Positions 4,750-20,019 of a stretch of DNA of 20,019 nt are shown here, one piece after another. Source of the DNA: a virus. The DNA is taken from UHGV virus genome UHGV-0180141; one strand, given 5' to 3'. The position numbers were made by a program, and so were the translations under genes. The notes under the pieces are model-generated. The model did no database searches, was not told where the DNA came from, and was given only the letters and a program-made list of their open reading frames with translations. Within the stretch, counting starts at the first letter, position 1. The number at the start of each line of letters is the position of its first letter.

Positions 4750-5661
4750 ATGGACCAAACCACCGACATTCAGGCTTCTGAAGAATTAACCCTGCCCGGC
4801 AATCATGCAGCGGCATCTGCTGATGGCTTAGTTGTCGATAATGCCAACGACAACGCAGGTCAGGAAGAAGGCTTCGAGATTGTCCTGAAAGACGATGAGA
4901 AACCAAAACAAGACCCGGCAACTAATGCTGAATTTGCCCGTCGCCGCATCGAACGCAAACGCCAGCGTGAGCTTGAGCAGCAGATGGAAGCGGTTAAGCG
5001 TGGAGAATTGCCGGAGCACCTGCGGGTGAACCCTGAGTTACCGAAACAACCAGACCCTAACGATTATCTTTCCGAAGATGCACTGGCTAAGTACGACTAT
5101 GACCAGAGCCGCGCACTGGCTGCCTTCCAGCAGGCAAATAGTGAATGGCAGATCAAGGCTATGGACGCACGAAGCCAGGCTGTCGCCGAGCAGGGTCGCA
5201 AAACTCAGGAGTTCACCCAGCAATCAGCGCAATACGTCGAGGCAGCCCGTAAGCACTACGACGCAGCGGAAAAGCTCAATATCCCTGACTATCAGGAGAA
5301 AGAGGATGCATTCATGCAACTGGTGCCGCCAGCAGTCGGTGCCGACATCATGCGCCTCTTCCCGGAGAAATCCGCCGCTCTCATGTATCACCTTGGTGCT
5401 AATCCTGAGAAAACACGCCAGTTGCTGGCGATGGACGGGCAATCCGCGCTGATTGAACTCACTCGACTGTCAGAACGTTTAACTCTCAAGCCTCGAGCCA
5501 AGCATGTTTCAGAAGCCCCGTTACCTGATGAGCCAATTCAGGGACACGCTGTTGCTGCAAATATCTCTGCGATTGAAAAGCAGATGGAAGCGGCAGCAAA
5601 CAAAGGGGATGTAGAGACATACCGCAAGCTCAAGGCGCAACTGAATAAAGGAATTCGATAA
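4750..5661 (+). CDS. scaffolding protein (P22 gp8-like)
   Basis: 303 aa, the P22 gp8 length; highly charged, helical, Ala/Glu/Lys/Gln-rich; sits between portal and coat. Confidence 0.88.
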
Positions 5662-6183
5662 TTATTTCGATATCGTGATGTTGTTTTCCTCGTCAAACTT
5701 TCTGATTACTTCTTTCGCCTCTTCGAATGAAGAACATACTTTTTGCACTCTTGCATTAAGCAGTCGCTTATGAGCGATCCATCTTTTCCGCGTGTTGCAA
5801 AAGTAAACTCCAGATATTCCGCTGGAGTTATTTTTAGATAGTTTGATTCTATTCCTTTGGTTTGCTGATTTTTTCACAAGACGAAGATTTTCAATTCTGT
5901 TGTCGTGGCGAATCCCATTTATATGGTCAATTTCCATGCCTTCTGGAATATCTCCGTTAAACATTACCCATACGATGCGGTGTGCTAGCCACTTAATGCC
6001 GTTAATTCTTATGCGGATATATCCATTGCTTTCTAAAAGACCAGCAACTTTCCCAGCGTGTTTTGCATTCCAAACGTTGTGATAGTTGCGATTCTTTTTG
6101 TTGTTGAAAAATTCAGAGCTTCTGGCTTTCCAAACCAAAGAACCATCGCGGTATTCGAAGTATTCATTCAGTTCCATGCTCAT
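5662..6183 (-). CDS. HNH homing endonuclease (HNH_3 domain plus C-terminal AP2-like DNA-binding domain)
   Basis: Protein contains NGYIRIRINGIKWLAHRIVW...IDHINGIRHDNRIENLRLV (HNH_3-type motif with His/Asn catalytic residues) followed by SGISGVYFCNTRKRWIAHK (AP2-like). Antisense to the late operon, AT-rich relative to its flanks, and its stop abuts the scaffold stop. Confidence 0.85.
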   Translation of the reverse strand: MSMELNEYFEYRDGSLVWKARSSEFFNNKKNRNYHNVWNAKHAGKVAGLLESNGYIRIRINGIKWLAHRIVWVMFNGDIPEGMEIDHINGIRHDNRIENLRLVKKSANQRNRIKLSKNNSSGISGVYFCNTRKRWIAHKRLLNARVQKVCSSFEEAKEVIRKFDEENNITISK

Positions 6184-6250: not shown

Positions 6251-7546
6251 ATGACTCTCAAAGAAGGGCAGTTAGTTACTTACGCTATCGATGAAATCAT
6301 CGAAACCGTCCAGAACTTGACGCCAATGGCGTCCAAAGTGACAAAATACACCCCCCCGGCAGAATCCATGCAACGTTCAAGCAACACCGTGTGGATGCCT
6401 GTTGAGCAGGAAGCGCCAACTCAGACTGGCTGGGATTTAACTGGCAACGCTACCGGGATTCTGGAACTCTCCGTGAAATGCAACATGGGTGATCCGGATA
6501 ACGATTTCTTCGAGCTTCGTGCAGATGACCTGCGTGATGAGCGTTCTTACCGTCGCCGCATCCAGGCATCAGCCAAAAAACTGGCGAATAACATTGAGTC
6601 AGCGATTGCCAAACAGGCAACTGAAATGGGCTCGCTTGTTGTTCACGATACCCGCGCAATTGGTCCATCTACTGGCCTGTCTGGCTGGGATTTTGTGTCT
6701 GATGCAGAGCGCCTGATGTTCTCCCGTGAGCTAAACCGCGATATGGGCATCAGTTACTTCCTGAACCCTGACGATTACCGCAAAGCAGGCCGCAACCTGG
6801 TAGATGGTGACATCTTTGGGCGCGTTCCTGAAGAAGCGTATCGCAACGGTACTATTCAGCGTCAGATTGCTGGCTTTGATGAAATTCTTCGCTCACCGAA
6901 ACTTCCGGCAGTTACCAAGTCAACCGCTACTGGTGTAACTGTTTCTGGTGCGCAGAAGTTTAAGCCGCAGGCATACACCCTTGATACCGATGGTAACAAA
7001 GAGAACGTCGACAACCGTGTTGCAACGGTGACCGTATCCTCCACCACCGGATTTAAGCGCGGCGACAAAATCAGCTTCACTGGCGTGAAATTCCTGTCTC
7101 AGATGGCGAAGAACGTGCTGACTGATGACGCGACTTTCTCAATCACCCGTGTGATCGATGGTACTCACATCGAAATCACGCCGAAGCCTATTGCGCTGGA
7201 TGACGCGTCACTGACAAAAGAAGAGAAGGCTTACGCTAACGTAAACACCTCTCTTGCTGATACCACTCCGGTAAACGTTCTGAACGTGGCAACAACCACC
7301 GCTAACGTGTTCTGGGCTGATGACTCAATCCGTCTGCTGTCTCAGCCGATCCCGGTAACCCATGAGCTGTTTGCTGGCATGAAAACGTCTTCCTTCAGCA
7401 TTCCTGGTATTGGTGTTAACGGCATCTTCGCAACGCAGGGTGATATCAACACTCTGTCTGGTAAGTGCCGTATTGCTGTGTGGTATTCAGCATGTGCTGT
7501 ACGACCAGAGGCAATTGGTGTTGGTCTGCCTAACCAGACCGCGTGA
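6251..7546 (+). CDS. major capsid (coat) protein (P22 gp5-like)
   Basis: 431 aa (P22 coat is 430); conserved blocks recognisable from P22 coat ([52 protein letters not shown]). Confidence 0.95.
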
Positions 7547-13051: not shown

Positions 13052-15787
13052 ATGGCTAATTACCGTGATTTGTTAGAGCAGGCTGGCGCACGTTACGGTG
13101 TGCCAGAAGGGTTGATGACTGCACTGGGTGCCAAGGAGTCTTCTTACAACCCTGCCGCAGTAAGCTCCGCCGGGGCTGTAGGATTGACTCAGGTCATGCC
13201 TGGGACATGGCGTGATATGGGTTATACCGATGAGCAAATGCAAAACCCCGAATATCAGGCTGACGCTGGCGCGCGCTATCTGGCAAAGATGTACCAGCAG
13301 TTTGGTAACTGGCGTGACGCTCTTCAGGCTTATCACGACGGCCCCGGCAACGTTATGAAGGCAAAGCGTGGTGAATATACGCCAGGACCTGAAGGCCGCG
13401 GTTACGTTGATGATCGCTTTGCTCAATGGGCGGGTGACCCGGTGACAGACTCAACAGTCGAACAGCGCGCCACCTCTGCAAAGGTACATCCTCAGCAAGA
13501 CCCTAACAACCCGTTTGCACAACTGGAAGCACAGTCATCCGAACAAGTATCGGCATCAGGCGTGCAGTCAGACCCAAATAATCCATTTGCTCAGATTGAG
13601 CAGCAGGCAGCCAGTCAGCAGCCACCTCAACCCGTAAGTTCTGTCGCACCGAAACCTGTTCAGCAACAAACAGTTAATCAGGCCAATAATGCACCAACAC
13701 GGGAAGAACCATCATTGATGCAACAAGCTGGTGATTGGCTCACAGGTGGTCAAAGTGCAGGGCAAATTGCAGAGCAGGCTGGTCGTGGTCTGGTAAACAT
13801 ACCATTTGACGTATTGCAGGGTGGCGCAAGTCTGATTAATGCAATCAGCCAGGGGCTTGGTGGCCCCAAGGTTTTGGACGATGTCTATCGTCCAGTAGAT
13901 CGACCGACAGACCCTTATGCGCAAGCTGGAGAGTCAATAGGCGGTTATCTTGTTCCTGGAGCAGGAGTAGCTGGAAACATGGTCATTGGTTCTCTCGCTG
14001 ACGCGGCGAATCAACGGGGTGATTTTGCCGAAAATGCCGCTATTAATGCCGGACTTAACATTGCTACGCATGGCCTGATAAATGGCGTTACCCGTGGTGT
14101 TCGTGGCGCATCAAATATAATTAGTGGCAATAAAACATCTGCACAGAGAGCGACCACTGCGCCAACAGAAACATCACCATTCTCCGGTGATGCCGCTGCA
14201 GCAACAAATCCTGCGGTTCATGCCGCAGAGGCAAGAGCAGCACAAGGTGTACCAATGACGCCTGCGGCGAGGGACCCAGAGGAGGTCGTTCGCACAGTAG
14301 CAGCACAAAAAAGGCCAAATCTCGCTTCATCGCTTGATGAACTAGATATCAATCCTCAGGCTGAAGTTCTGGAGTCTGCTGAAAGGCTTAATGTTGATTC
14401 ATTACTCCCTTCACACTTTTCCGGGAACGAGCAATACAAGGCAGTTGAGCAAGCAATCAAGTCCCGTGCGGGTTCTGCTCTACGGGTGCAGGAAAATGAA
14501 GCAATCAGGCAACTAGCACAGGGCGCGGGGGAGATAATTGATCGCGTTTCCGGTGCAAAAGATGCTCTTGGTATGAGCGACAAGTTTATTGATACGATCA
14601 ATGGAAGAATGTCTGCGCTGATGAAACGAAGCGACCAGCTTTATCGCAATGTTGAAAAGGCGATGCCTGCAGGTGCAAAAATTGATGCGCCATCAACAAG
14701 GTCAATGCTCAAACAGGTGGCAGAAGATCTTGGCGGGATGAAAAACCTTGACCCTATTGAAAAGAGAGTCTTTCGGGCAGTTAATCCAGGCAAGAACGGC
14801 GCATTAACTTATGCAAATCTCAATAAGCAACGACGACTTGTTGGTGATGCACTTCATAAGAAGTCTGGACCATATAAAGATGCTGATCGCGCTGCTTTAT
14901 CGAGGCTTTACGGTTCGCTCGCCGATGATCAAAAGGCGGCGCTGTCAGAGACAAATGCATTACGTGATTTTGAAGTTGCTCAGAGGCTTGTTCAGATGCG
15001 AAAAAGCATGGAAGAGCAAATGATTAATCTAACTGGCAGAACACTGAACGGTGATGTTTCTCGCAAAGCAACTACAGCACTACAGGCAATGTCGAAAGGC
15101 GATGCCAAAGGATTTCGTGAATTGATGCAAAACACGCCGTCCAGGAAGCTAAGAACCGAGCTACTGGGAACAGGTCTTCGGGATATGCTTTCGAACGGAA
15201 AACGTGGCGCTGATTTTAATCCTGCAGGGTTTGCTGACTGGTATCAAAACATGTTAGCAAACGGGCAGATGCGCAATCTTGCCCGACATTTACCAAAAGA
15301 GACTATGTCAGGTCTGAACGATGTATATAAGGTCGCAAAGGCTATCAAAGACGCAAAATCTTACGAGATAACTACAGGAAGACTAAACGAGTTCGTCAAA
15401 CGGTTTAATCGCGTCACTGCGGCAAATGAATTTGTTGCTAACCATGCCCAACGCATTGGCACTGCGGTTGGTTCAACTGTGTCAGGACCGTTCAGTGCAG
15501 TAGGTGCTGTTGCTGGGTCAGAAATTGGGGCAAAAGTCGCCAGCAAAATCAGGGCGATGGGCGGCGCTGAATCAATTGAATCTGCAGAAAAGCTAATTAG
15601 CTCACCAGAATTCCAGAAAGCAGCAAGGCTGGCAGTAAAACAAGCACCAGAAAGCATCGTTGATACAACTGTAAGACGCTCTTCTGCTTGGCGCTCGTTT
15701 TACAACTCACTTCCAGAATCAGATAAGAAAACCATATCAAGGCTAGGCATCATGTACTGGATGAACAGTGATGATAACCAGAAGTAA
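13052..15787 (+). CDS. ejection protein (P22 gp16-like) with N-terminal lytic transglycosylase (SLT) domain
   Basis: 911 aa. N-terminal ~110 aa carries SLT-like motifs ([10 protein letters not shown] with candidate catalytic Glu, [19 protein letters not shown]); then a Q/P-rich linker with a tandem DPNNPFAQ(L/I)E repeat, then a long helical/Ala-Gly-rich body. Last gene of the plus-strand string, start abutting the gp20-like stop. Confidence 0.85.
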
Positions 15788-15804
15788 CGGAAAGCCACGG
15801 ATGG

Positions 15805-15888
15805 TTAGTTGCTGTCTTTTTTATATAAATCTCTGAGCGTATCAAAGACAATTTTCTTTACCATATCGGATTGTTGGTCTGCAATACG
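15805..15888 (-). pseudogene. remnant of the 3' end of a P22-type mnt gene (C-terminal ~27 codons only)
   Basis: Minus-strand translation gives ...RIADQQSDMVKKIVFDTLRDLYKKDSN*, closely matching the P22 Mnt C-terminus (...RLADEQSELVKKMVFDTLKDLYKKTT, from memory). No Mnt-like N-terminal region upstream in any frame. The frame is continuous with the lipoprotein ORF stop at 15976-15978. Confidence 0.5.
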
Positions 15889-15975
15889 CGATGCTATTGG
15901 TAGCGATGAATTCAATCGCTTGTCGAGAGCTGGTATTGTCGCCTCGTTAAGCGGTATGAATGAATATGAATAGCT

Positions 15976-16461
15976 TTATCTAATGTTGCTGCTACTGTTG
16001 CATGTGACGGTATTTCCAAATCCTGAATTGCAGTTTGTATATGTGTCAACGCGCGTTGGGTAAGGTTGAGTTATAACAGGCTGGCGCGCTTTTTGCTCGA
16101 TCGCTTGCATTGTGTTTACAGCCTGATAATTCAATAAAGCCTGCTGGAATGCTTGGCTTTGTGCTATTTGTTGGGCTTGTTCTTGGCTTTGTAATTGAAC
16201 ATAAAGATTCTGAAGCTCAAGTCTTGCCTGCGCGTCACTTATCTTGCCATCATCGACACCTTGCCCGAGCATCTTCGCAGCAAGGACATATAACTTAGGT
16301 GTTGGTGCTGATGCCATGCGTGAGTCGTTCTTCACACTGGCATCAAGGCAATTAGCCATATCGCTAAGCTTTGGATAGCGTTGCTCGCAACTTGCCTGAT
16401 AGTCGCTTACTTTTGCGCACCCAGCCAGCAGAAGCGGGATAATTAACAGTGATTTTTTCAT
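15976..16461 (-). CDS. predicted lipoprotein (161 aa) of unknown function; possible superinfection-exclusion moron
   Basis: Start chosen at internal ATG (rc of 16459-16461) giving MKKSLLIIPLLLAGC..., a signal peptide with lipobox LAGC; strong RBS TAAGGAGAG 8 nt upstream. Mature part is Q-rich/helical with a Cys-containing C-terminus. The track ORF extends 17 codons upstream to 16512 without an RBS. Confidence 0.72.
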   Translation of the reverse strand: MKKSLLIIPLLLAGCAKVSDYQASCEQRYPKLSDMANCLDASVKNDSRMASAPTPKLYVLAAKMLGQGVDDGKISDAQARLELQNLYVQLQSQEQAQQIAQSQAFQQALLNYQAVNTMQAIEQKARQPVITQPYPTRVDTYTNCNSGFGNTVTCNSSSNIR

Positions 16462-16495
16462 ATAATTAACTCTCCTTAGTTTTGCGCAGGATACC

Positions 16496-16861
16496 ATGAA
16501 AAAAGTTAACATTGGAAACGTACCAAAGATGCTCGTTCCGCTCTTTGAGAGCGGTACAATTGTGTTTTGTAGAGACTTTCCAGAATGGCAACGCCTGCAT
16601 CAAAAACTTGGCGTTGACGTGCATGACTCGGACGCCAACGGAGCGTCTCATACAATGAGCAGCGAGAATGGTGTTTTGCATGTGATAGGCGTGTTCAATG
16701 GCAAACTATCTACTATTGCCCATGAGTGCGCTCACATGGCATTCGATATCTGCTCAAGGGTCGGCGTTGATGTTGAACCAGGAAGAGCCAACGAGACTTA
16801 CTGCTACTTAATGAGCAGGCTTGTTGAGTTCTGCGAGCGACATATCAAAAAGCCGGAGTGA
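16496..16861 (+). CDS. small HExxH-motif protein (121 aa), putative ImmA/IrrE-like zinc metallopeptidase
   Basis: Contains ...VLHVIGVFNGKLSTIAHECAHMAFD..., fitting the (F/T)(I/L)AHE..H pattern of M78/ImmA-type peptidases, with candidate third ligands (Glu/Asp) downstream. AGGA 5 nt upstream of ATG; divergent from the lipoprotein gene with only 34 bp between start codons. Confidence 0.6.
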   Translation: MKKVNIGNVPKMLVPLFESGTIVFCRDFPEWQRLHQKLGVDVHDSDANGASHTMSSENGVLHVIGVFNGKLSTIAHECAHMAFDICSRVGVDVEPGRANETYCYLMSRLVEFCERHIKKPE

Positions 16862-16872
16862 CCCGGCTTGAT
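16851..16872. terminator. putative bidirectional terminator between convergent genes
   Basis: Hairpin AGCCGG-agtgac-CCGGCT (16851-16868) with T-rich sequence on both strands; overlaps the stop codon of the HExxH gene. Confidence 0.45.
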
Positions 16873-16874
16873 TA

Positions 16875-17054
16875 TTACTTTTTGCTGTCTGGAGTTCGCT
16901 TATCCAATACCCAGCCATGACCTGGCTTTGTTGTTGGTGGAAGCCTTTCATTGTCCTTGACGGTGGCAAAATTGTCTTTCTTACCGCCGCGTGGGCCAAC
17001 TTCTTGGTATATTCCGCCGTTTTTTCCCGTGTTTTCACCTGGTTTTTTCGCCAT
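16875..17054 (-). CDS. hypothetical small Gly/Lys-rich protein (59 aa)
   Basis: Start at internal ATG (rc of 17052-17054) giving MAKKPGENTGKNGGIYQEVGPRGGKKDNFATVKDNERLPPTTKPGHGWVLDKRTPDSKK, with RBS GAGGT 6 nt upstream; terminator hairpin downstream; candidate sigma70 -35 TTGACT (rc of 17114-17119) upstream. Confidence 0.45.
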   Translation of the reverse strand: MAKKPGENTGKNGGIYQEVGPRGGKKDNFATVKDNERLPPTTKPGHGWVLDKRTPDSKK

Positions 17055-17144
17055 GATATACCTCAACATGCACCCGTTATTGGGCGATTAAATATTGATC
17101 TCATTTTATAAGTAGTCAATATGGCCCAGGTAAATGCAAAAATT

Positions 17145-17168
17145 AACCCACCGTCAGGTGGGTTTTTT
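17145..17168. terminator. putative bidirectional rho-independent terminator at the 3' end of the mnt-like gene
   Basis: Hairpin AACCCACC-gtca-GGTGGGTT (17145-17164) followed by TTTTTT on the plus strand and by TTAATTTTTGCATTT on the minus strand; the mnt-like stop codon lies in the loop. Confidence 0.55.
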
Positions 17169-17474
17169 GTTTAGCAGTTCTCTCAACTTTTCGTTCTGCT
17201 CTCTGAACTTTTCCTGTATTTCTTTTTGCATGGCGATAACCTGGGCTTGAAGTTGAACTAGCGCATCAACATTTAGCGGAACCGAGACGCTGTTGATTTT
17301 GTCTGCTATTTCCCCAAGAGTATTTTCTGCATTCAAGGCATCTTCCAGTATCTGCACAATCTCTGAGTTCATAGAGCGCCCGTTTCGTTTGGCTCTCTCC
17401 GCAATCGCGTCCCTCATCCCGTCAGGGAAACGCACAACAAACTTTTCGTAATCTTTAACCTGCTTTTCAGCCAT
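17154..17474 (-). CDS. mnt: Mnt-like ribbon-helix-helix repressor (106 aa)
   Basis: N-terminus KFVVRFPDGMRDAIAERAKRNGRSMNSEIVQILEDAL matches the Arc/Mnt RHH fold signature (NGRS(M/V)NSE); helical C-terminal extension; GAGGTG RBS 5 nt upstream; divergent from the arc-like gene as in P22 immI. Confidence 0.8.
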   Translation of the reverse strand: MAEKQVKDYEKFVVRFPDGMRDAIAERAKRNGRSMNSEIVQILEDALNAENTLGEIADKINSVSVPLNVDALVQLQAQVIAMQKEIQEKFREQNEKLRELLNKKPT

Positions 17475-17493
17475 AACATCACCTCAAAAAAAA

Positions 17494-17556
17494 CAATGAT
17501 GGCATATTGCTATTTATATTCAATGATGGCATATTGCTTTCAAGGCATAATGCCAT
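17494..17556. promoter_or_regulatory. candidate immI operator/promoter region (Pant/Pmnt with Arc/Mnt operator repeats)
   Basis: Perfect 18-bp direct repeat CAATGATGGCATATTGCT at 17494-17511 and 17521-17538 (27-bp period), plus inverted element GGCAT-a-ATGCC at 17544-17554 sharing the ATGGCAT core; candidate -10 CATAAT (17546-17551) for the rightward arc-ant promoter and TTGAAA/AATATA-like elements on the minus strand for mnt. Confidence 0.5.
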
Positions 17557-17576
17557 TACGTAAAAAGGAGTGATCA

Positions 17577-17738
17577 ATGGAAAAGAATGAAGTGAAGACA
17601 ACTCTTCGGTATCCGTACCGTTTTAAGGAGGAGGTGAAACGCATCGCTAAGGAAGAGGGGATGTCAGAAAACTCAGTGTTGGTTCAGGGACTTGCTTGGT
17701 GGTTGAAGTACCGGGAGAAAATGCGGAATGCTCTCTAA
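17577..17738 (+). CDS. arc: Arc-like ribbon-helix-helix repressor (53 aa)
   Basis: Hand translation MEKNEVKTTLRYPYRFKEEVKRIAKEEGMSENSVLVQGLAWWLKYREKMRNAL; 53 aa as in P22 Arc, with an RHH-like beta-strand/helix pattern; AAAGGAG RBS 6 nt upstream; directly upstream of ant. Below the ORF-track size cutoff. Confidence 0.72.
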   Translation: MEKNEVKTTLRYPYRFKEEVKRIAKEEGMSENSVLVQGLAWWLKYREKMRNAL

Positions 17739-17809
17739 AAATAACGAAGCCCCGACAGCGGGAACTGGCGAGGCTTCTACATCAACAAATCTGATCGGGA
17801 AATATTGAC

Positions 17810-18688
17810 ATGAAAAGTATAGCAAAGGCACAAAACGATTTCACCATCTTCAAATTCGGCGACAGTGAAATCCGCGTCATCAACAAGTGCGGTGAGCCGT
17901 GGTTTGTAGCAAAAGATGTTTGTGATGCTTTAACTCTGACTAACTCACGCAAGGCGCTTACTGCACTTGATGACGATGAGAAGGGAGTAACTTTAAGTTA
18001 CACCCTTGGTGGTGAGCAGAATTTAAGCATTGTGAGCGAATCAGGTATGTATACATTGGTTCTGCGCTGCCGCGATGCAGTCAATAAAGGTTCAGTCCCG
18101 CACAAATTCCGCAAGTGGGTAACAGCAGAAGTTCTGCCTTCAATTCGCAAACATGGCGAGTATGTAAAAGGAAAGAAAACCACTGTTGAGGAAAGAACAC
18201 CGCTACGAGATGCAGTAAACATGCTGGTAGGAAAGAAAGGACTTCGCTATGACGATGCATACAATATGGTTCATCAGCGTTTTGGTATTGACAGCATTGA
18301 TGAACTTTCAATTGAACAAATCCCGCTGGCCGTAGAGTACATCCACAGGGTAGTGCTTGAAGGTGAGTTCATTGGCAAACAAGAGAAGAAAACCAACGAG
18401 CTTTCTGCAAAAGAAGCAAACAGCCTTGTATGGCTATGGGATTATGCCAACCGCTCACAGGCATTATTCCGCGAATTGTATTCGGCGCTAAAACAAATTC
18501 AATCGAACTATTCCGGCAGATGCTACGACTACGGTCATGAATTCTCGTATGTTATCGGAATGGCGAGAGACGTTTTAATCAATCACACACGAGATGTTGA
18601 TATTAATGAGCCAGACGGACCAACGAATCTTTCCGCATGGATGAGACTTAAGAATAAAGAATTACCTCCTTCAGTACATAACTACTGA
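17810..18688 (+). CDS. ant: antirepressor Ant (BRO-N/KilA-N-type N-terminal domain)
   Basis: 292 aa (P22 Ant about 300); N-terminal [18 protein letters not shown]...[10 protein letters not shown]...[17 protein letters not shown] is the Bro-N/antirepressor signature; follows arc. Confidence 0.85.
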
Positions 18689-18706
18689 CAGATAACCAAC
18701 GCAACG

Positions 18707-18729
18707 ACCCAGCTTCGGCTGGGTTTTTA
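18707..18729 (+). terminator. rho-independent terminator after ant
   Basis: Hairpin CCCAGC-ttcg-GCTGGG (18708-18723) followed by TTTTT. Confidence 0.6.
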
Positions 18730-18786
18730 TGTCCAAAATTCACCGTAGCCATGCTTTGGCGATTCCTTGTATCTGGAGTAAATTAA

Positions 18787-20019
18787 ATGACAGACATTAC
18801 AGCTAATGTGATTGTATCGATGCCTTCGCAACTCTTCACTATGGCGCGTTCTTTTAAAGCCGTAGCCAATGGCAAAATTTATATCGGTAAAATTGATACT
18901 GACCCGGTAAATCCTGAAAACCAGATTCCGGTTTATGTAGAGAACGAAGACGGTTCTCACGTTCCTGTTTCTCAACCAATCATTATTAACGCTGCTGGTT
19001 ACCCGGTATATAACGGACAGATTGCCAAGTTCGTTACTGTACAGGGCCATTCTATGGCTGTTTACGATGCGTATGGGGCACAGCAGTTTTATTTTCCAAA
19101 TGTGCTGAAGTATGATCCGGATCAGCTAAGACATGAGCTAGCGTCGGAAGCGGGAACAACTTTAATAGGGAAGGGTGATCGAACTCTTGAAGAGTACTTA
19201 GAATCAAGCAAGGAAGATTTTGATAACTCATGGAAGAGATATGTAGGTAAATCTACAACGACACAAAAAGATAGCGCATACTCTGGAGCAGCTCACTACC
19301 AACCAGTTAGCGATGATGGGAGCACAATTGGTAATTATACATTTGAATCACCGGTGATTGTTGACTTCTCATCTACATCAGATTGTGTTATGCCAGATTC
19401 TGGTGTCGTTTTCAAAATGGGAGCTAATGGACTTACAAGTGGTAATTATTTTTCTCAAGATAATTACCACTTAAAAAATGTAACGGCAATTGGCGGTACC
19501 CCTGAAATTGTTACATTTGAACCATACACAGGATTGACAGCACTAGTAGATGGTGTTCGTATTATAAATAATGGCTCTCCAGACAAGACCGCTATTAATT
19601 TTAAAGGACAGAACTGGTGGCCTACAGTATCTAATAATATATTTAAAGATTATACAGATAAAAGAGGAAATTTTTGCAAGGCAATAGATGACGGAGGAGA
19701 TTCATCTATAAGAAGGAGTGGGAATAGTAGATTGCTTTTCACTGGAAATAAAGTCTACTTTGGTGGGGATGCTCTTGGTGGTACGATGTTGAAAGCCAGC
19801 GCTGTCTTTAATATTATAAAAGATAATGCCTGTGAACACGGAGAGAACGCGATTGTGTTTGAGTACCCATCATCATTCTCAGTTATCGACGGACTTTACA
19901 CAGAATGTTCTTTTGGTGGTGGTAATCAGATAGTAATTGGTGACAAAGAACCTGATCCTAATATTGCAACAATGAATATGATTGGAATAACTATTAAGAA
20001 TGTTTATTTCAATAATCAT
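18787..20019 (+). CDS. tailspike protein (P22 gp9-like head-binding domain plus divergent receptor-binding domain), 3'-truncated by window end
   Basis: N-terminus [50 protein letters not shown]...VLKYDPDQ closely matches the P22 tailspike N-terminal domain as recalled; after about residue 110 the sequence is unrelated and AT-rich; GGAG RBS upstream; no stop before the window end. Confidence 0.9.

Follow-up and report, generated by a model that had tools for sequence, protein, structure and literature searches.

The last open reading frame (ORF) of UHGV virus genome UHGV-0180141, a stretch of 20,019 nucleotides (nt) that is called the window below, is a P22-like tailspike gene carrying a receptor-binding module of the type found in tailspike protein 4 (TSP4) of Salmonella phage Det7. 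The ORF starts with an ATG at 18787 on the plus strand and runs without a stop codon through position 20019 (411 codons); as an earlier note on this DNA had stated, the gene is cut by the window end. Taken as a whole, the evidence is best explained if the ORF represents the 5' 60% of the tailspike gene (the gene 9 equivalent) of a P22-like (Lederbergvirus-type) Escherichia coli phage or prophage, a reading to which we assign a probability of about 0.88. The domain swap itself is of a well-known sort, mildly new in its partner, its rarity, its AT bias and the receptor hypothesis that it suggests.

A P22-type head-binding domain ends at a sharp mosaic junction

Pfam annotation places the P22 Head_binding domain (PF09008) on amino acids (aa) 1-113 of the protein, covering profile positions 1-113 of 113 (E=1.1e-66). 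Up to the conserved YDPDQ, this segment is 77% identical to P22 gp9, 91% to Sf6, 96% to HK620 and 98% to CUS-3 and HZ41, in agreement with the earlier description of residues 1 to about 110 as P22-like up to VLKYDPDQ. A near-identical copy of the protein matches the Sf6 and P22 tailspike chains in the PDB over aa 1-121 only. In a separate observation, residues 48-169 of PDB 6tgf chain F (an 'exopolysaccharide biosynthesis protein' of 736 aa) match tailspike aa 8-129 (E=1.4e-10), which suggests that a bacterial protein related to exopolysaccharides may carry a tailspike-like N-terminal domain.

Homology to other P22-like phages stops directly behind this domain. A megablast search of the ORF against 50,697 phage records matched 23 P22-like phages, with every match ending at gene nt 339-356 (window 19125-19142) and none extending past the junction. 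Similarly, when window positions 15700-20019 were compared with 5,426 complete E. coli genomes, about 1,660 genomes had matches that stopped at 19112-19142. Both sets of end points agree with the proposed swap site at about 19110-19140. Downstream of it, the best BLASTP high-scoring pair with P22 gp9 reaches 27.7 bits (30% identity over 136 aa, gapped), which is no meaningful homology; the endorhamnosidase part of gp9 (aa 114-667) contains its catalytic residues, E359, D392 and D395. By sequence homology, the window protein does not belong to the P22 endorhamnosidase receptor type (P22, ST64T and Det7 TSP3), and the claim that nothing resembling this enzyme follows the head-binding domain thus held. 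Because the Pfam boundary, the identities, the megablast end points and the lack of downstream P22 homology all agree, we conclude that the domain-swap junction is real and lies where it was first placed. An architecture with conserved aa 1 to about 115 and unrelated C-termini has been described for P22-like tailspikes (PMC2629481; PMC3303846).

The sequences around the junction further indicate where the exchanged segment begins. CUS-3 and HZ41 share DPDQLR(Q), a few codons past the junction, and then diverge, while the module of Det7 gp206 starts at ...ALRSDLATGGKASLVG with the equivalent motif ALRSDLA. Since the module begins at this motif in both Det7 and the window, and since CUS-3 and HZ41 continue with DPDQLRQ before diverging, LRxxLA..G..(I/V)G thus marks the start of an exchangeable cassette.

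The receptor module is homologous to that of Det7 TSP4

A homology search with the residues beyond about 115, which the earlier note had proposed, identified a close relative. In tblastn searches against phage genomes, aa 116-411 are 68.5% identical to gp206 of Det7, with the same match in the corresponding proteins of vB_SenM-2, Phi_10 and RA148, all of them Kuttervirus (Ackermannviridae) myoviruses; hypothetical proteins of Vibrio phages match at about 30% identity. The E. coli bloodstream isolate AHB4 has a full-length chromosomal copy of the tailspike gene (682 aa, 97% identical over the 411 residues), which forms the last gene of a P22-like prophage and adjoins intS, tRNA-Arg and yfdC. 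Residues 114-682 of this copy align end to end with residues 484-1048 of Det7 gp206 (75% identity over 569 aa; 80.7% nucleotide identity over 1,443 nt). The 1,048-aa gp206 (AJQ21020.1) adjoins gp207 (TSP3, O4-specific) and gp208 (TSP2, O3,10-specific) and, being the spike next to these two, is TSP4. A 2024 review and a 2021 subtype analysis, in their receptor tables, give Det7 receptors for TSP2 and TSP3 only.

Similarity thus covers the whole module of gp206 and of the identical proteins of SenM-2, Phi_10 and RA148, including the LRxxLA...G start, whereas the anchors differ: the N-terminal 483 aa of TSP4 serve the branched spike complex of Ackermannviridae and include PF18668 immediately ahead of the module, and the window protein has the 113-aa PF09008 domain instead. 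By full-length homology the module is of Det7 TSP4 type, but with its different anchor the protein as a whole is not an Ackermannviridae TSP4. The carriers differ as well, Det7 being a virulent Salmonella myovirus and the window a P22-like E. coli phage or prophage. Conversely, P22 gp9, Sf6 gp14, HK620 gp9, the CUS-3 endosialidase and epsilon34 gp19 resemble the window protein in the PF09008 domain (77-98% identity) and in the break after YDPDQ; in P22-like tailspikes the gene likewise closes the late operon behind the ant moron, and the receptor domain is likewise a beta-helix. Their receptor parts, however, have no significant sequence similarity to that of the window and differ in GC content at third codon positions (GC3, 0.36-0.42 versus 0.26), and the module found here, unlike these tailspikes, ends in a beta-sandwich resembling a carbohydrate-binding module (CBM). 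We conclude that the window gene is a P22-like tailspike gene with a Det7-TSP4-type module.

A receptor module common to P22 and Det7 has been on record since 2008 for TSP3 (cited in PMC8432352). The present case is the same phenomenon, in that a P22-like podovirus and myovirus Det7 have a module in common, and provides its second example; it differs in the Det7 spike involved (TSP4 instead of TSP3), in the module family and in the host of the P22-like phages (E. coli, not Salmonella). The general understanding of tailspike evolution or function is unchanged by it.

The module forms a small family that probably moves as a cassette

Relatives of the module are rare. A word-indexed search of 5.8 billion protein clusters returned only 19-22 relatives, to which a second search with a profile added only three proteins, and when 1.84 billion representatives were searched exhaustively with a HMMER profile, 40 clusters matched, of which 20 lie below 1e-30. 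IMG/VR contains five loci with the module, and a set of 185,579 species, with one genome per species, contains no relative. Among the 5,426 complete E. coli genomes, the module occurs in one lineage only (AHB4, two assemblies); assembly GCA_042737205.1 provides a second host, with a 92% variant. Other carriers of the module or of such variants include the IMG isolate genome 2579778982 and the Logan runs ERR3003412 and SRR30905180. The only named phage member of this small family is the C-terminal module of Kuttervirus Det7 TSP4. The N-termini of the relatives are diverse and include the P22 head-binding domain (E. coli, Citrobacter, Dickeya and Xenorhabdus), the T7 tail-fibre N-terminal domain (PF03906), Tail_spike_N (PF18668) and several segments with no Pfam match.

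From one E. coli prophage to another, the module varies much less than the anchor does. Compared with a prophage copy from a gut metagenome, the window has 53 differences in the first 339 nt and 5 in the next 894 nt; compared with AHB4, the numbers are 29 and 17. Such a pattern is the mark of diverged tailspike genes that have recently exchanged their receptor cassette. Recombination at the domain boundary has probably carried the cassette from one anchor domain to another and across phage types. Tailspike receptor modules set phage host range, and they serve directly as reagents for typing and to target engineered pyocins and phages (PMC3303846; PMC9965104); the natural fusion point after YDPDQ could be used for such engineering.

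An integrase gene comes directly after the tailspike gene in each of the three full-length prophage copies (L001 7794-8951; L009 12150-13307; L016 6147-7304). Unlike Sf6, HK620 and the O104 prophage, these copies have no O-antigen acetylase or gtr-type modification gene there, and lysogens carrying them may lack the usual receptor-modifying protection against superinfection.

The module is AT-rich, with a less abrupt shift than first described

The earlier note had described the DNA as markedly AT-rich immediately after the junction and suggested an analysis of GC content and codon usage. GC is 0.428 and GC3 0.398 in the head-binding part, compared with 0.375 and 0.262 in the receptor part present in the window, which is the lowest-GC 894-nt stretch of the window (Fisher test against the rest of the window, p=3e-11). 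The GC3 difference between the two parts is significant in the window copy (p=0.008) and in the full-length AHB4 copy (p=0.0006). Virion-assembly genes have a GC3 of 0.547; the receptor domains of P22, Sf6, HK620 and CUS-3 have 0.36-0.42, so the module is unusually AT-rich even for its class. The AT richness is therefore real, but its immediacy was somewhat overstated: total GC of the two parts differs at p=0.09 only, a free GC3 change point within the ORF falls at codons 120-150 with a permutation p of 0.10, which is not significant alone, and the largest compositional step of the window lies near 15570 (GC 0.50 to 0.43), at the transition from the ejection-protein gene to the ant moron. What supports the composition claim is accordingly the comparison across a fixed boundary, together with that to other genes, and not the change-point test.

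Instead of a recent import from a low-GC donor, low GC might also reflect protein or codon constraints, or the AT bias that phage accessory regions show in general. The right end of the window from about 15570, comprising the ant moron and the head-binding domain, is already at 0.42-0.45, compared with 0.50-0.53 in the structural genes; GC at second codon positions (GC2) goes up in the receptor part; and the imprecise change point within the ORF fits this explanation too. We nevertheless consider it unlikely, as it is mainly the synonymous third positions that lose GC (0.40 to 0.26), other P22-like receptor domains stay at the higher GC3 given above, and homologous modules span a GC3 of 0.25-0.42, implying that a low value is not forced by the protein family. 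The interpretation of the earlier note, a domain swap that implies a different O-antigen or capsule specificity acquired from a lower-GC source, is supported overall.

The O114 O-antigen is the best candidate receptor

In AHB4, wzx and wzy are annotated as O114 family, and its wzy, which is present in nine of the 5,426 E. coli genomes, matches that of a strain named O114:H49 at 99.8% identity or more. To lysogenise a strain, a temperate P22-like phage has to adsorb to it. Together with the precedent of an O104 prophage whose tailspike was shown to be O104-specific (PMC3303846), this makes the E. coli O114 O-antigen the best candidate receptor, at odds that we put slightly below even and on the basis of one independent host lineage. 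The O114 O-antigen contains D-ribofuranose and a 3-amino-3,6-dideoxyglucose substituted with N-acetyl-L-serine (PMC7685785; PMC2905691).

The receptor could instead be a capsular (K) polysaccharide or another exopolysaccharide. P22-like tailspikes can target capsules, as exemplified by the K1 endosialidase (by annotation) of CUS-3; AHB4, the only complete carrier genome, is a bloodstream isolate; and homologues occur in Dickeya, Xenorhabdus and Vibrio phages. We regard a capsular receptor as improbable, because the two Det7 spikes with assigned receptors, TSP2 and TSP3, both target Salmonella O-antigens and because the rare O genotype of the sole complete host genome would be unlikely by chance if O type were irrelevant.

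If the O114 O-antigen is indeed recognised, the module might be the founding example of a depolymerase family that is specific for O114 (ribofuranose and N-acetyl-L-seryl-Qui3N) and common to temperate P22-like podoviruses, phages with T7-type tails and virulent Kuttervirus myoviruses. This is a tentative proposal, and we hold it with less confidence than O114 as the receptor; if true, it would give the first receptor clue for Det7 TSP4. For the module family, which has no assigned receptor, O114 is a genome-based clue to specificity. As the O28 gene cluster of Salmonella Pomona is organised much like that of O114 (PMC2905691), a candidate receptor of Det7 TSP4 is Pomona-type O28, to be taken as a lead only.

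A predicted beta-helix suggests a polysaccharide depolymerase

Pfam annotates no domain after aa 113, and single-sequence and profile searches of PDB sequences with the receptor part gave nothing but a marginal match to a CBM4 laminarinase (E=0.15). We rely on an AlphaFold monomer model of the isolated domain of a near-identical homologue (P0001), built from 33 aligned sequences (predicted local distance difference test, pLDDT, 90.8; predicted template modelling score, pTM, 0.87); a first run on the full-length protein with 14 sequences was discarded (pLDDT 58.7). The model predicts a linker, a right-handed parallel beta-helix from aa ~169 to ~529 of the full protein and a C-terminal beta-sandwich beyond the window, and thus contains the C-terminal beta-helix characteristic of P22-like tailspikes. 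Likeness to pectate-lyase-like beta-helix depolymerases (PF12708, polygalacturonase, chondroitinase B, GH110, PL6) is at the level of the fold only: PF12708 (Pect-lyase_RHGA_epim) matches neither the window protein nor the full-length homologue, and only the remote relatives P0041 and P0043 match it. Because there is no Pfam match and solved structures are no more than 14% identical, no particular catalytic machinery can be assigned to the protein.

Across the 33 homologues, with identities as low as about 20%, nine positions never vary and others hardly do; those inside the window include N276/W277/W278, S314/R315, Y371/E373, D386 and H411. By analogy with characterised tailspikes, the most likely mechanism is that aa 1-113 anchor a trimeric spike to the tail hub, and that everything after YDPDQ (linker helix, beta-helix and CBM-like beta-sandwich) acts as the exchangeable receptor-binding cassette. 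The beta-helix would bind host surface polysaccharide along a groove and cleave it, E373 and D386 being candidates for the catalytic residues, and cleavage would bring the virion to the outer membrane. A binding-only adhesin, with penetration achieved by other means, is very improbable, given that characterised P22-like and Kuttervirus tailspikes of this fold cleave or deacetylate their receptors (PMC2629481; PMC11721090) and that E373, D386, H411, Y371 and R315 persist across the homologues in a pattern typical of an active site.

Genomic setting and other genes in the window

The window is syntenic with P22, IME10 and APC_JM3.2, and the tailspike gene ends the late operon and lies downstream of the immI/ant moron with its Arc and Bro-N/P22_AR_C genes, as expected of a P22-like gene 9. 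The variable ant moron itself occupies 15976-18688, between the ejection genes and the tailspike gene (Table 1). At the place equivalent to the hairpin upstream of the tailspike gene, HK620 has an annotated tANT, and the hairpin thus corresponds to the tANT position of P22 and HK620. A minus-strand ORF at 18727-19050 (107 aa) was judged spurious, as it overlaps the conserved head-binding coding region.

Table 1. Features of the tailspike gene and the adjoining ant moron (window coordinates)
Feature	Position	Strand	Basis or remark
ORFs with no Pfam match, 178 aa (-) and 121 aa (+)	within 15976-18688	- and +	ant moron
Hairpin terminators	16850-16869 and 17145-17164		ant moron
Arc-like repressor	17154-17474	-	ant moron
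Bro-N/P22_AR_C antirepressor	17810-18688	+	ant moron
Terminator-like hairpin	18706-18725 (with T-run, 18706-18733)	+	8-bp stem, 5 GC pairs; 3' of antirepressor gene, upstream of tailspike gene
Ribosome-binding site GGAG	18775-18778	+	8 nt before ATG; read from sequence
P22-type head-binding (particle-attachment) domain, aa 1-113, ending ...NVLKYDPDQ	18787-19125	+	Pfam, PDB, identity, megablast
Mosaic junction, DPDQ/LRHELAS	19112-19142	+	end of DNA homology to other P22-like tailspike genes
Linker/neck, aa 114-168, with predicted alpha-helix at aa ~134-150	19126-19290	+	AlphaFold; least conserved part relative to Det7
Predicted right-handed parallel beta-helix, N-terminal ~two thirds, aa 169-411	19291-20019	+	AlphaFold; cut by window end

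Three further genes deserve mention. The last ejection-protein gene (13052-15787, plus strand) has a product of 911 aa that starts with an SLT lytic transglycosylase domain in its N-terminal part (E=3e-25); prophages with the same tailspike module have 703-aa proteins of the P22 gp16 family at this position. GC declines along the gene, whose 3' part contains the main compositional change point of the window (about 15570). Between the scaffold (4750-5661) and coat (6251-7546) genes, where GC dips locally (0.42 versus about 0.51), a 173-aa minus-strand ORF (5662-6183) encodes an HNH_3 endonuclease domain (E=4e-22) and has the look of an insertion of homing-endonuclease type among the head genes; the related prophage L009 has an HNH gene at a different place. 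Finally, an 80-aa plus-strand ORF upstream of the small terminase gene (158-400) matches DUF2560 (E=3e-42).
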